DNA of 35,431 nt from Minisyncoccota bacterium. Lineage in GTDB: Bacteria > Patescibacteriota > Minisyncoccia > Phycocordibacterales > JAACPR01. Shown piece after piece: positions 17,476-22,342 of this stretch; position 1 is the stretch's first letter, and every line of letters starts with the position of its first letter. The DNA is taken from the NCBI GenBank assembly GCA_043728995.1, contig JAYTLZ010000023.1, positions 1-35,431 on the forward strand, given 5' to 3'. The position numbers and the translations under genes are program-made. Under the pieces are notes generated by a model that was not told where the DNA came from, did no database searches, and saw only the letters and a program-made list of their open reading frames with translations.

Positions 17476-17549
17476 AGCGGGGTGGAGGAGAGGTACCTCG
17501 TGAGGCTCATAACCTCAAGGCTCTGGTTCGATTCCAGACCCCGCTACCA
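17476..17549 (+). tRNA. tRNA-Met(CAT), initiator type, CCA encoded
   Basis: AGCGGGG/CCCCGCT acceptor, GAGG/CCTC D stem (A11-U24), TGAGG-CTCATAA-CCTCA, TCTGG-TTCGATT-CCAGA, ACCA end; TATAAT at 17444-17449. Confidence 0.92.
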
Positions 17550-17613: not shown

Positions 17614-18304
17614 ATGGCAAAAGGTGTTCAGAAATCAAAAGCTATCCTTTTGAGAAAGAAAGGAAAAAGTCTTTCTGAAATCGCACAGGAGCTTGGTGTT
17701 TCCAAAGGTTCGGTGAGTATCTGGGTTCGAGATATCGAATTATCTAAATCTGCACAGAAGAACCTTTCACTTAAGATACAAAGGGGGTTCATATATGCGA
17801 AGAATAAAGGGCTCGTTGACTAATAGAGATAAAAGGACTGCAGTACAAGAGAAGGTACGGCAAACAGCTGAAAAAGAGTTGGGTAAGATAAGTGAGCGAG
17901 ACCTCCTTATGATTGGTACGGCTTTATTCTGGGCAGAAGGAAACAAGAAAGGAAGCAGGTTTGTTTTTTCAAACTCAGATCCCGCCATGATTTCATTGAT
18001 GGCCTCATTTCTACAAAAGTGCATGGGCGTCACTCATGATGAAATGTATCTCAGCATACAAATTAATGAGAGTCATAAGAGTCGCTCAGACAAGGTCATA
18101 AAATTCTGGATGAAGCACCTTAATTTTGATAAAAGCCAAATCAGGGGACCATATTTCATTCGAAGCAAGACCGTTAAGGAATATGCAAATTCAGATAACT
18201 ATTTTGGTATCGCACGAATGCAAGTGCGAAGAAGTTCCGTTTTACAATACCGAATTTTAGGGTATATTAGAGGTCTTGCGGAGCGTTTTAACATGTCGGG
18301 GTAG
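17614..18304 (+). pseudogene. Frameshifted HTH + LAGLIDADG-like gene (ORFs 17605-17823 and 17795-18304); stop codon lies inside the tRNA-Met gene
   Basis: N part: LRKKGKSLSEIAQELGVSKGSVSIWVR (HTH). C part: IGTALFWAEG...FSNSDP (LAGLIDADG-like helix). Removing one base, e.g. from G5 at 17783-17787, fuses them. AT-rich. Confidence 0.7.
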
Positions 18305-18368
18305 CTCAGGTGGTTAGAGCGGTCGTTTCATAAGCGACAGGTCATGAGTTCAACTCTCATCCTCGGCA
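18295..18368 (+). tRNA. tRNA-Met(CAT), probably elongator (Ile2 not fully excluded)
   Basis: GTCGGGG/CCTCGGC acceptor, GCTC/GAGC D stem, GTCGT-TTCATAA-GCGAC, ATGAG-TTCAACT-CTCAT, discriminator A. Confidence 0.9.
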
Positions 18369-18455
18369 CAATTTACATGCGCACGGCATTTTCGTTTGTT
18401 GCTAAAAAAGCCTTGCACTGTATAATCCATCCATACTATTTAACGCATTATTATA

Positions 18456-19856
18456 ATGGAACGAACATATATCAAAGACCTGAAGGAACATGTCGGAAGC
18501 GAGGTAACCATCAAGGGGTGGATCGACGTCAGGCGTGACCAGGGCAAGCTCATCTTTCTGGACTTTCGGGACATGACCGGCAAGGTGCAGGGAGTTATTC
18601 TGCCTGGAGCAGACCAGGCACATGAGGTCGGATCACAGGTGCGACCCGAGTGGGTTGTCGAGGTGAAGGGAAAGGTAAACCCGCGACCGGAGCGAAACGT
18701 GCAGGCGGACAAAATGAACGGAGACATCGAGCTCGAGATTCTTTCCGTTGCAGTACTCAATACGGCAGAGACTCCTCCTTTTAATATAGACGAGGACGGA
18801 AAGGACATCGGAGAGGAGACACGACTCAAGTACCGATACGTCGACCTCAGGCGAGACCGCATGCAGAAGAACATTCGCATGAGGCACAAGGCGATGCAGT
18901 TCGTACGGGAATTCTTCACCAAGGAAATGTTCACCGAGATCGAGACTCCGTACATGACCAAGTCCACACCAGAAGGATCACGAGACTACGTCGTGCCTTC
19001 GCGAATTTACCAGGGGAAGTTCTACGCGCTTCCGCAGTCTCCGCAGCAGTACAAGCAGCTTCTGATGTCCGCAGGATTTGAGAAGTACTTCCAGATCGCG
19101 CGATGCTTCCGAGACGAGGACACGCGAGGGGACAGGCAGCCGGAGTTCACACAGGTCGACCTCGAGATGAGTTTCGTAACGCAGGAGGACGTGATGGCCG
19201 TGAACGAGAAGATGCTGATCGAGATGGTGCAGACTCTGTATCCGGAGAAAAGGATCCAGCAGATTCCTTTCCCGCGAATCTCATACGCGGAAGCGATGGA
19301 GAAGTACGGAAACGACAAGCCGGATATTCGAGAGGACAAGGAGGATGCGAATCTCTTGGCGTTCTGCTGGGTGATCGACTTTCCATTCTTTGAGAAGACT
19401 GATACCGGAGCATGGACGTTTACGCATAATCCGTTCTCCGCACCAAAGCCGGAGTTCATGGAGGACCTGCGTGCAGAAAGTAATATCGAGGGAATCGTAG
19501 CAGCGCAGTACGACATCGCGCTGAACGGATACGAGATCGGAGGAGGAGGAATCCGAAACCACAATCCTGAGGATCTCAAGAAGGTGTTTAAGATCATGGG
19601 ATACTCTGACGAGCGCATCGAGTCCAACTTCGGACACATGCTGACCGCGCTTGCGTCAGGTACGCCGCCACATGGAGGAATCGCGTTCGGGTTCGACCGA
19701 CTGATGATGCTTCTGCAGAACGAGCCGAACATCCGCGAGACGATTGCCTTCGCCAAGACAGGTGAGGGTAGGGATCCGATGATGGAATCTCCGTCCGAGA
19801 TTGCTGATACGCAGCTTCAGGAGCTCGGGATTATCATCAAGAAGCCGCTAAAATAG
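18456..19856 (+). CDS. aspS: Aspartate--tRNA ligase, bacterial type, lacking the GAD insertion domain
   Basis: OB fold RRDQGKLIFLDFRD, RLKYRYVDLRR, LPQSPQQYKQ, CFRDED..RQPEFTQVD, PPHGGIAFGFDR. Confidence 0.96.
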   Translation: MERTYIKDLKEHVGSEVTIKGWIDVRRDQGKLIFLDFRDMTGKVQGVILPGADQAHEVGSQVRPEWVVEVKGKVNPRPERNVQADKMNGDIELEILSVAVLNTAETPPFNIDEDGKDIGEETRLKYRYVDLRRDRMQKNIRMRHKAMQFVREFFTKEMFTEIETPYMTKSTPEGSRDYVVPSRIYQGKFYALPQSPQQYKQLLMSAGFEKYFQIARCFRDEDTRGDRQPEFTQVDLEMSFVTQEDVMAVNEKMLIEMVQTLYPEKRIQQIPFPRISYAEAMEKYGNDKPDIREDKEDANLLAFCWVIDFPFFEKTDTGAWTFTHNPFSAPKPEFMEDLRAESNIEGIVAAQYDIALNGYEIGGGGIRNHNPEDLKKVFKIMGYSDERIESNFGHMLTALASGTPPHGGIAFGFDRLMMLLQNEPNIRETIAFAKTGEGRDPMMESPSEIADTQLQELGIIIKKPLK

Positions 19857-21324: not shown

Positions 21325-21996
21325 GTGCCAATCTATAAAAAGATTAACAAGGACTTCTTTAAGAAGTGGACCAAGGACATGTCCTATGTTCTGGGATTTC
21401 TATATGCGGATGGCAACATTATCAAAAACAAGAGAGGTGCACATTTTATATCACTGTACTCTGCCGACTTTGATTTGTTAGAAAAGATGCGTGACGCAAT
21501 GGGATCAGATCATAAGATCTCAAACAGAAAAGGTCTGGATTCTAATAATCATTCGATTCAGATAGGCAGTAAGGAAATGTATGAAGATCTGATAGTTCTG
21601 GAATTGAGGCAAAACAAAACTCTTAGAATGCAACTTCCTCTTATTCCTGATAAATTCTTCAGCTCCTTTCTCAGAGGATATTTTGATGGTGATGGGAACG
21701 TATGGGTGGGTCAGATACACAAGGAAAGAAAGACAAGTCATCTTGCAATACGGACGGTCTTTACCTCATGTTCCAAGGAATTTCTAATTTCTCTGAATGA
21801 AAATATTTATAAACTATCGGGACAAAAGGGATCTGTTACAAAAGGAAAGGGTAATTATTACAGGCTTACATTCAGCATAAAAGGCTCTTTCCAATTGTAT
21901 GAAATGATGTATAATGGCGTCCAGTCATCTTTGTTTTTGAACAGAAAAAAGACGAAGTTTGATGAGTATTTTACAGATAGACACATGCAGGTGTAG
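21325..21996 (+). CDS. Free-standing two-motif LAGLIDADG homing endonuclease; stop codon inside tRNA-Asp
   Basis: Motif 1 YVLGFLYADGN, motif 2 FLRGYFDGDGN; AT-rich; GTG start 8 nt after TATAAT (21311-21316). Confidence 0.9.
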   Translation: MPIYKKINKDFFKKWTKDMSYVLGFLYADGNIIKNKRGAHFISLYSADFDLLEKMRDAMGSDHKISNRKGLDSNNHSIQIGSKEMYEDLIVLELRQNKTLRMQLPLIPDKFFSSFLRGYFDGDGNVWVGQIHKERKTSHLAIRTVFTSCSKEFLISLNENIYKLSGQKGSVTKGKGNYYRLTFSIKGSFQLYEMMYNGVQSSLFLNRKKTKFDEYFTDRHMQV

Positions 21997-22295
21997 CTCA
22001 GCTGGTTAGAGCGTCCGCCTGTCGAGTGGCAGCTTCCGGTACGAAAGTCCGGTCGAACAATAAGGTGAATTGCTGGAAACCCTCCTCAAAAATGAAAGGG
22101 CAATCAGCAGCCAAGCTTCGGAGCGATCCGTTGAAGGTTCAGAGACTATCCCTTCGGGGAGTAGCCTGCGAAAGCAGTCGAAGCGCCTTACGCCTAAAGT
22201 CAGAAATGACCACGGTGATGATATAGTCCATACCATTATGTAAATTTTGGATTAATGCACGCGGAAGGTCGTGGGTTCGAGTCCCATCACTTGCG
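21987..22295 (+). tRNA. tRNA-Asp(GTC), intron-containing (exon 1 21987-22022, exon 2 22258-22295)
   Basis: GCAGGTG/CACTTGC acceptor, G73; spliced anticodon arm TCCGC-CTGT|CAC-GCGGA; GTGGG-TTCGAGT-CCCAT. Confidence 0.93.
22023..22257 (+). ncRNA. Group I self-splicing intron, 235 nt, ORF-less, IA-like (P7.1/P7.2), inserted at tRNA position 35/36
   Basis: Exon ends in U and intron ends in G; P1 CTGT|C:GGCAG with U.G wobble; P3 TAAGGTG/CGCCTTA; P AATTGCTGGAAA; Q AATCAGCAG; R TTCAGAGACTAT; S GATATAGTCC. Confidence 0.93.
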
Positions 22296-22299
22296 CAAC

Positions 22300-22342
22300 A
22301 AAAGGAAAGACCCAATAGCGAAAGCGTTGGGTCTTTCCTTTT
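22300..22342 (+). terminator. Terminator after tRNA-Asp
   Basis: AAAAGGAAAGACCCAA...TTGGGTCTTTCCTTTT with GC-GAAA-GC cap. Confidence 0.85.

Follow-up and report, generated by a model that had tools for sequence, protein, structure and literature searches.

Group I introns found in tRNA genes of bacteria have been catalogued by setting, and the four classical settings (Leu.3Ug, Arg.5Ug, fMet.2Ug and Ile2.5Ug, all of class IC3) were extended by 17 more to 21 (Williams 2020, bioRxiv 10.1101/2020.01.27.920355); the accessible part of Lui et al. (2021) states that some tRNAs of their genomes from the Candidate Phyla Radiation (CPR) had group I introns. Here we analyse a 35,431-nucleotide (nt) stretch of DNA (hereafter, the window; contig JAYTLZ010000023.1, positions 1 to 35,431, forward strand) from the Minisyncoccota assembly GCA_043728995.1 (G000; 636 kb in 52 contigs, 92% complete, a size as expected for Patescibacteria, that is, CPR), in which a tRNA-Asp(GUC) gene at 21987-22296 (+) is interrupted inside its anticodon, between nt 35 and 36, by 235 nt, and is abutted by a free-standing gene of the LAGLIDADG homing-endonuclease type. 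Whereas the introns of tRNA-Leu(UAA), fMet, Ile(CAU) and Arg(CCU) occupy sites 34/35, 33/34 and 36/37, the site here is 35/36 and the isotype is different; in the nomenclature of Williams (2020) the gene would be Asp.4Ug (anticodon-loop position 4, that is, nt 35/36, with U at -1 and G at omega).

Taking the sequence and its relatives together, we consider it highly probable that the split tRNA-Asp(GUC) gene is in working order and that its transcript would have to shed a group I intron between U35 and C36, and that this copy most likely derives from an intron of tRNA-Asn.

A tRNA-Asp gene split inside its anticodon

When the interrupting segment (22023-22257) is removed by coordinates, ARAGORN finds a canonical 75-nt tRNA-Asp(gtc) in which the junction joins ...CCTGT to CACGCGG...; when introns are allowed, the same program reports tRNA-Asp at 21987-22296 with an intron of 235 nt. 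A first-pass annotation made from the letters alone had named this isotype, this insertion site and these intron ends, all of which are borne out by the calls on the spliced and unspliced sequence. Its warning that tRNA finders may miss the gene was also well placed: the gene goes unreported in a default ARAGORN run on the window, and with the tRNA model of Rfam the split gene scores 24 bits, below the cut-off of 29. With default finders, the genome would therefore seem to be without tRNA-Asp, and estimates of completeness and coding capacity would be off.

In G003 and G005, the intronless gene matches the 5' exon at 100% identity over its 5' half, and a terminator-like hairpin stands directly 3' of the gene (Table 1). 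The promoter-like site upstream is weak, in that a consensus scan found 4 such sites in the region versus 2.6 expected by chance. As no second tRNA-Asp was found in the 92% complete G000 (ARAGORN, introns allowed), and no other tRNA-Asp match in G001 (100% complete) or G004 (99%), both of which have the same intron, aspartate codons could be read only once the intron has been taken out.

The tRNA set of G000 (introns allowed) comprises 24 genes, with none called for Asn, Ala, Ile, Phe, Pro or Trp; the uncalled tRNAs may be encoded on parts that the assembly lacks, or ARAGORN may overlook them because of the way they are split. One of the 24 calls is a tRNA-Thr(agt) with an insert, near the 23S rRNA gene on contig C16.

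Anatomy and conservation of the intron

The Rfam model Intron_gpI (RF00028) matches the insert with 69.5 bits (E 7.8e-16; cut-off 50), and with 67 bits on a short stretch, so that the group I class proposed in the first-pass annotation passes the covariance-model check suggested there. Each helix that it had named (P1 with a wobble pair, a 3-bp P10, P3, P7, P7.1 and P7.2) was found in the sequence, as was the terminal G; only the guide strand of P1 needs adjustment, since of the proposed GGCAG at 22028-22032 the GCAG at 22029-22032 stands and G22028 belongs to P10. The guide GUG-GCAG is complementary to the entire anticodon loop (CUGU/CAC), with one U.G wobble at the 5' splice site, and can therefore hold both exons through P1 and P10. 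Helices P2 to P9 come after it in the usual sequence. The U.G pair of P1 is invariant in 20 of 20 rows of the alignment of class-1 introns (A2; class 1 is described below).

Among these 20 introns, 88.6% of 1303 alignment cells are paired, versus 34-42% when the partners are slid; compensatory change is seen in 37 of 68 pairs, and none of 500 shuffles attains the observed score. P7, by analogy the guanosine-binding helix, has all six pairs invariant in 20 of 20 sequences, so that covariation neither supports nor contradicts it. P7.1 and P7.2 form a 33-nt insert that separates P7 from the 3' strand of P3. G000 has just one further group I match, an intron of 62.7 bits that interrupts the gene for 23S rRNA (locus L002, about 1500-1740; C16:10609-10844, minus strand).

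Table 1. Features of the split tRNA-Asp locus and its surroundings (window coordinates).
Feature	Position	Strand	Evidence or remarks
tRNA-Asp(GUC) 5' exon	21987..22022	+	nt 1-35, last base U35 is the -1 base; ARAGORN, spliced and unspliced
tRNA-Asp 3' exon	22258..22296	+	C36 to discriminator G; CCA not encoded
Group I intron, 235 nt, without an open reading frame (ORF)	22023..22257	+	Rfam RF00028, helix check, covariation in 20 relatives
Internal guide sequence	22026..22032	+	GUG (P10, with CAC 22258-60), then GCAG (P1, with CUGU 22019-22)
P1	22019-22022 with 22029-22032		U22022.G22029 plus 3 Watson-Crick pairs
P10, 3 bp	22026-28 with 22258-60		
P2 hairpin, GAAA loop	22036..22052	+	95.6% of cells paired; 6/6 pairs compensatory
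P3	22061-67 with 22184-90	+	encloses P4-P6a/b; 99.3% of cells paired
P4	22071-76/22104-09	+	90-100% of cells paired
P5	22080-83/22097-100	+	87.3% of cells paired
P6 and extension P6a/b	P6 22110-11/22137-38; P6a/b 22116-22136	+	P6a aligns poorly
P7 pseudoknot helix	22142, 22144-48 with 22224-29	+	A22143 bulged
P7.1, UUCG loop	22149-52 with 22157-60	+	94.7% of cells paired; 2 compensatory pairs
P7.2, GAAA loop	22166-69 with 22174-77	+	79.7% of cells paired; 4/4 pairs compensatory
P8/P8a, GAAA loop	22191..22217	+	98.8% and 83.1% of cells paired
P9, GUAA loop	22233..22250	+	6/7 pairs compensatory in relatives
Terminal (omega) G	22257	+	first 14 relatives examined also all end in G
Terminator-like hairpin and U-run	22300..22342	+	directly 3' of tRNA; -27.8 kcal/mol, z -7.45, 0/200 shuffles as stable
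Promoter-like site	21888..21915	+	in 3' end of LAGLIDADG gene, 72 nt upstream of tRNA; 10/12 consensus matches
LAGLIDADG homing-endonuclease-like gene, free-standing, double-motif, 223 amino acids	21325..21996	+	stop codon 8-10 nt inside tRNA
tRNA-Met (first)	17476-17549		
tRNA-Met (second)	18295-18369		
Aspartate-tRNA ligase gene (aspS)	18456-19856	+	NF001750, 621 bits; 2.1 kb upstream of tRNA-Asp
ORF of 292 amino acids	19958-20836	+	between aspS and LAGLIDADG gene; no Pfam or NCBIfam family match

Several observations weigh against a working, self-removing intron, and some of them would suit a dead relic in a tRNA pseudogene, with aspartate decoding carried out by another gene that is missing from the assembly. 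G000 is incomplete and has just 24 tRNA genes, so that for this genome a second tRNA-Asp on a missing contig is possible; P9 of the window copy holds two U.U mismatches; and no listed RNA run contains the locus, nor did literature searches find a published demonstration of its splicing. In addition, P6a is poorly supported in the alignment (51.3% of cells paired), and the minimum-energy fold is no better than those of shuffles (z -1.19, 21 of 200 shuffles as stable); because folding energy does not set the intron apart in this way, the case for it is carried by the covariance model and covariation. A relic would nevertheless have to be reconciled with an intact core that scores above the Rfam cut-off, with helices that keep pairing through compensatory changes across 20 copies, with exons identical to the intronless genes of the genus and with the terminator hairpin that follows the gene, as well as with the fact that G001 and G004, at 100% and 99% completeness, share the split gene and have no other tRNA-Asp match. 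We therefore regard a relic as extremely improbable.

Presence and absence among relatives

The split gene was searched for across the order in 61 genomes (G000 and 60 relatives) and the loci were fetched, which gave a tRNA-Asp locus in 42; the intron at 35/36 is present in 10 of these and absent from 32. Within the genus (g1), four of eight genomes have it (G000, G001, G004 and G007) and four do not (G002, G003, G005 and G006). The intronless alleles of the genus correspond to the window gene minus exactly 235 nt, with identical or near-identical exons, and comparison of alleles leaves a one-base ambiguity in the intron ends, since a C stands on both sides. The intron is likewise patchy in a class-wide sample, where it occurs in at most 3 of 151 genomes. 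These include a possible match in G502 that is probably due to chance; this genome also has an intronless tRNA-Asp, and a reversed control pattern matched four genomes. Matches in a phage collection were confined to partial matches to the core, and none of 30 records covers 80% of the query.

Contigs with a joint that skips 235 nt at 22022/22258 (depth about 35-38 in three of four DNA runs) were considered as a spliced product and rejected, as their exons differ from the window by 2-4 letters; they stem from other members of the community, whose tRNA-Asp genes have no intron, and are uninformative on splicing.

Other split tRNAs lie near tRNA-Asp in related genomes (loci L071:3305-3570; L081:2379-2644(-); L073, L075, L079, L084, L095 and L118; and L078:829-1184(-)). 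They comprise tRNA-Thr(GGU) with an intron after nt 36, several tRNA-Met(CAU) with inserts of 206-273 nt and one tRNA-Leu(CAA) call with a 281-nt insert. The 'intron-bearing tRNA-His' called by ARAGORN in L071 is actually a tRNA-Thr(GGU) with a 36/37 intron, and His is not supported as a further host.

Two intron lineages and a link to tRNA-Asn

Introns of a related kind occupy the same position in tRNA-Asn(GUU) genes, and our set of 56 unique 35/36 introns has 43 from tRNA-Asp genes and 13 from tRNA-Asn genes. Their alignment splits into two groups that have little in common beyond the universal core: class 1, with P7.1 and P7.2, takes in every one of the 13 Asn introns and, with the window copy among them, 7 Asp introns, and class 2, which is compact (194-253 nt) and without P7.1/P7.2, comprises the remaining 36 Asp introns. 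A tree of the 56 introns separates the two classes at 100/100. The 35/36 site of tRNA-Asp is thus occupied by two unrelated intron lineages, with the window copy in the rarer one.

Within class 1, the window copy belongs to a clade of six Asp introns (98/97) that is nested in a clade with three Asn introns of the same genus or family, each bearing an HNH endonuclease gene (95/93); the nearest Asn relative is the Asn intron of G004, a member of the same genus. The seventh class-1 Asp intron, that of L067, groups elsewhere, with another Asn intron as its sister (97/88). In the sequence of P2, the window copy hardly differs from the Asn introns, and the P1 target CUGU is common to tRNA-Asp and tRNA-Asn, whereas the P10 part of the guide differs by host (GUG opposite CAC in Asp, UUA opposite UAA in Asn). 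In four genomes of the family, the Asn introns (561-601 nt) hold an ORF for an HNH endonuclease of 108-110 amino acids in the P1 loop (L007:1714-2040(-), L009:1726-2052(-) and L010:1736-2068(-), and also in L034); the 3' end of this ORF runs through the guide sequence and P2, such that its last codons are coding and ribozyme at once; the 108-amino-acid ORF of L009 matches Pfam HNH with 22.1 bits (cut-off 21.4).

Given that the genus is polymorphic for the intron, that G028, from another genus of the same family, carries a class-2 Asp intron and that the window copy has its nearest kin among Asn introns from within the genus, we favour a recent move from tRNA-Asn to tRNA-Asp. When the Asp introns as a whole are kept separate from the Asn introns as a whole, the tree loses 42.7 log-likelihood units, yet its p-value in the approximately unbiased (AU) test is 0.058, and with AU p-values of 0.058 and 0.131 the alternative groupings stand at the 5% level, for groups that were named after the tree had been seen. 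The direction from Asn to Asp is thus favoured but not formally secured. In the larger 35/36 sets, the splice-site bases were partly required by the search scripts.

This leaves room for a different history, in which the ancestor of the genus already had the intron in its tRNA-Asp and G002, G003, G005 and G006 lost it, with the likeness to the Asn introns explained by a move in the opposite direction (Asp to Asn) or by old common ancestry. Introns are known to be lost precisely, and the AU value of 0.058 leaves it possible that the Asn introns form one group. The Asn lineage is broad, however, in that the 13 unique Asn introns come from several families and all belong to class 1, whereas class-1 Asp introns number 7 of 43 and sit in two small tip clades; the class-2 intron of G028 in the same family and the nearest Asn relative within the same genus (that of G004) also speak for a move from tRNA-Asn. 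An ancestral Asp intron is, in our judgement, unlikely.

Two large ORFs resembling serine recombinases (L009:29-1501(+) and L007:15-1598(+), 490 and 527 amino acids) converge on the 3' ends of intron-bearing tRNA-Asn genes, as if an integrated element used tRNA-Asn as its attachment site.

The adjoining LAGLIDADG gene

The protein encoded directly 5' of the split gene matches PF14528 with 33.1 bits (cut-off 22.5) and has weak sequence matches to I-MsoI, to a putative homing endonuclease (2dch) and to I-AniI. Both of its LAGLIDADG motifs, including the acidic residues D29 and D123, are invariant in the alignment of relatives (A1). A profile search (one genome per species) gave at least 470 relatives, of which the best 80 were taken, 6 of them ending at contig ends; in all 74 assessable loci of these best 80, tRNA-Asp(GUC) directly follows the LAGLIDADG orthologue, with a 35/36 intron in 34 (both classes) and without an intron in 40. 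In the order sample, the gene lies beside 5 of 10 intron-bearing tRNA-Asp loci, plus one C-terminal remnant, and beside none of 32 intronless loci in full form, with one remnant. The two remnants, directly 5' of tRNA-Asp in one intron-bearing and one intronless genome (L015, about 1172-1307; L141, about 1141-1236), suggest decay and loss of the nuclease gene. Among 151 genomes across the class, an orthologue adjacent to tRNA-Asp occurs in six, two of which have the intron (G000 and G300), and the remaining 145 have at most one intron match (G502). Related genomes are not independent, so these co-occurrence counts are given without a p-value. The nuclease gene can do without the intron, and the intron is also found where the nuclease gene is lacking, yet the two coincide far more often than not.

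An insertion/deletion difference from G006 includes the nuclease gene and stops 12-14 nt short of the tRNA, and no leftover copy of the 5' half of this tRNA was found upstream of the nuclease gene (alignment score 15, versus a shuffled mean of 15.6). Distant paralogues (L143-L162) abut intronless tRNAs, namely tRNA-Cys(GCA) at 3 loci, tRNA-Leu(GAG/CAG/TAG) at 10, tRNA-Phe(GAA) at 3 and tRNA-Pro(UGG) at 1, with each subfamily tied to one isotype; two further loci have no such tRNA downstream. Literature searches, judged by their listings and by passages of PMC3984707, found no paper on free-standing LAGLIDADG genes beside bacterial tRNA genes, and by these listings the word tRNA is absent from a paper on rRNA insertions in CPR (PMC11270868).

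LAGLIDADG maturases exist in organelles, and a gene that abuts the split tRNA, and that in the order accompanies 5 of the 10 tRNA-Asp genes with an intron but is missing beside those without one in 32 genomes, could be taken to encode a protein helper that splicing requires, besides or instead of acting as a nuclease. The other 5 of the 10 intron-bearing loci are nevertheless without such a gene, including that of G001, which is of the same genus and has the same intron; 40 of the 74 orthologues stand beside an intronless tRNA-Asp, and the paralogues beside intronless tRNA-Cys, Leu, Phe and Pro. Both catalytic-motif aspartates are also invariant, as expected of a nuclease. A maturase on which splicing depends is thus very unlikely.

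We suggest, tentatively and with the chances somewhat against it, that the intron, itself without an ORF, and the LAGLIDADG gene beside it travel as a pair at a bacterial tRNA gene, by hitch-hiking or by collaborative homing, and that the intron jumped from Asn to Asp by way of the shared CUGU. In the hitch-hiking variant, the nuclease would cut tRNA-Asp loci that are free of the nuclease gene, and repair would copy that gene together with the intron 36 nt away; in the collaborative variant, the intron would shield the anticodon region from cutting by the nuclease. If this were true, tRNAs with GUN anticodons would amount to a set of interchangeable landing sites, and if the nuclease is specific for tRNA-Asp DNA, it would add a family of natural, compact and sequence-specific enzymes.

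Gene order around the locus

The order tRNA-Met, tRNA-Met, (LAGLIDADG gene), tRNA-Asp is kept across many related genomes, and the series is present in the window (Table 1). In the window, aspS and two more ORFs are inserted between the second tRNA-Met and tRNA-Asp. The aspS product, at 466 amino acids, is far below the 590 positions of the bacterial model, which it matches in two stretches.

Proposed mechanism and comparison with known systems

We infer the splicing chemistry, and its independence of protein, from exons, splice-site bases, core helices and conservation that are seen in the sequence and in the comparisons. The likely route is the usual one for group I introns, two steps initiated by guanosine, with which all the features seen here agree. 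The 5' part of the intron, GUG-GCAG (22026-22032), would pair with both halves of the anticodon loop, and a free guanosine bound at P7 would attack the bond after U35, within the U.G wobble of P1. The terminal G22257 would then occupy the same guanosine site, and the freed 3'-OH of U35 would attack the bond after G22257, joining CUGU to CAC and restoring the anticodon loop.

As to origin, a resident tRNA-Asn intron was most likely transferred to the same position of tRNA-Asp, within the genus or in near kin, with loss of the HNH gene that the Asn copies carry. Only the P10 part of the guide would need to change for the new 3' exon, and that part has changed. The move may have proceeded by reverse splicing or through the HNH enzyme, between which the sequence cannot tell. 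This scenario would represent a fairly recent and datable change of host gene by a group I intron lineage, apparently within one genus, at an anticodon site of a single tRNA that is home to two ribozyme lineages unrelated to each other.

The view in the first-pass annotation that 35/36 introns have been described in Asn and Asp tRNAs of Patescibacteria, and that this one is rare and not necessarily new, is plausible. With respect to described systems, three aspects are possibly new: the two lineages at one site, the likely move from Asn to Asp and the LAGLIDADG link. The scheme of Williams (2020) sorts introns by tRNA and site and would not part the two lineages found here at one site, and its main text makes no mention of neighbouring nuclease genes. 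Within the site itself, P7.1 and P7.2 set the window copy apart from the 36 class-2 Asp introns, which lack both hairpins.

Introns of class IC3 have a compact periphery in which P7 is followed by the 3' strand of P3 with no P7.1/P7.2 in between. As the 33-nt insert of the window intron forms two covarying hairpins at this point, we do not file it as a typical IC3 intron. Group IA introns, such as that of phage T4 td, do possess P7.1 and P7.2. The window copy resembles them in layout, with its two extra, covariation-supported hairpins at this place, and on this one criterion it might belong to group IA. Such elements are listed among the features that separate group I classes in the accessible part of PMC3984707.

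The arrangement also invites comparison with the 'collaborative homing' of phages, which it resembles in combining an ORF-less intron with a free-standing endonuclease gene at the same conserved gene, the two being 36 nt apart and mostly co-occurring. It differs in that the setting is a bacterial chromosome, the target a tRNA gene and the enzyme a LAGLIDADG protein, and in that the link is drawn here from co-occurrence counts. Over half of the orthologues, furthermore, lie by an intronless tRNA-Asp, and the intron is therefore not needed for the nuclease gene to persist. The LAGLIDADG link thus offers a testable bacterial counterpart to the collaborative-homing model, proposed in phages, of how mobile introns originate.

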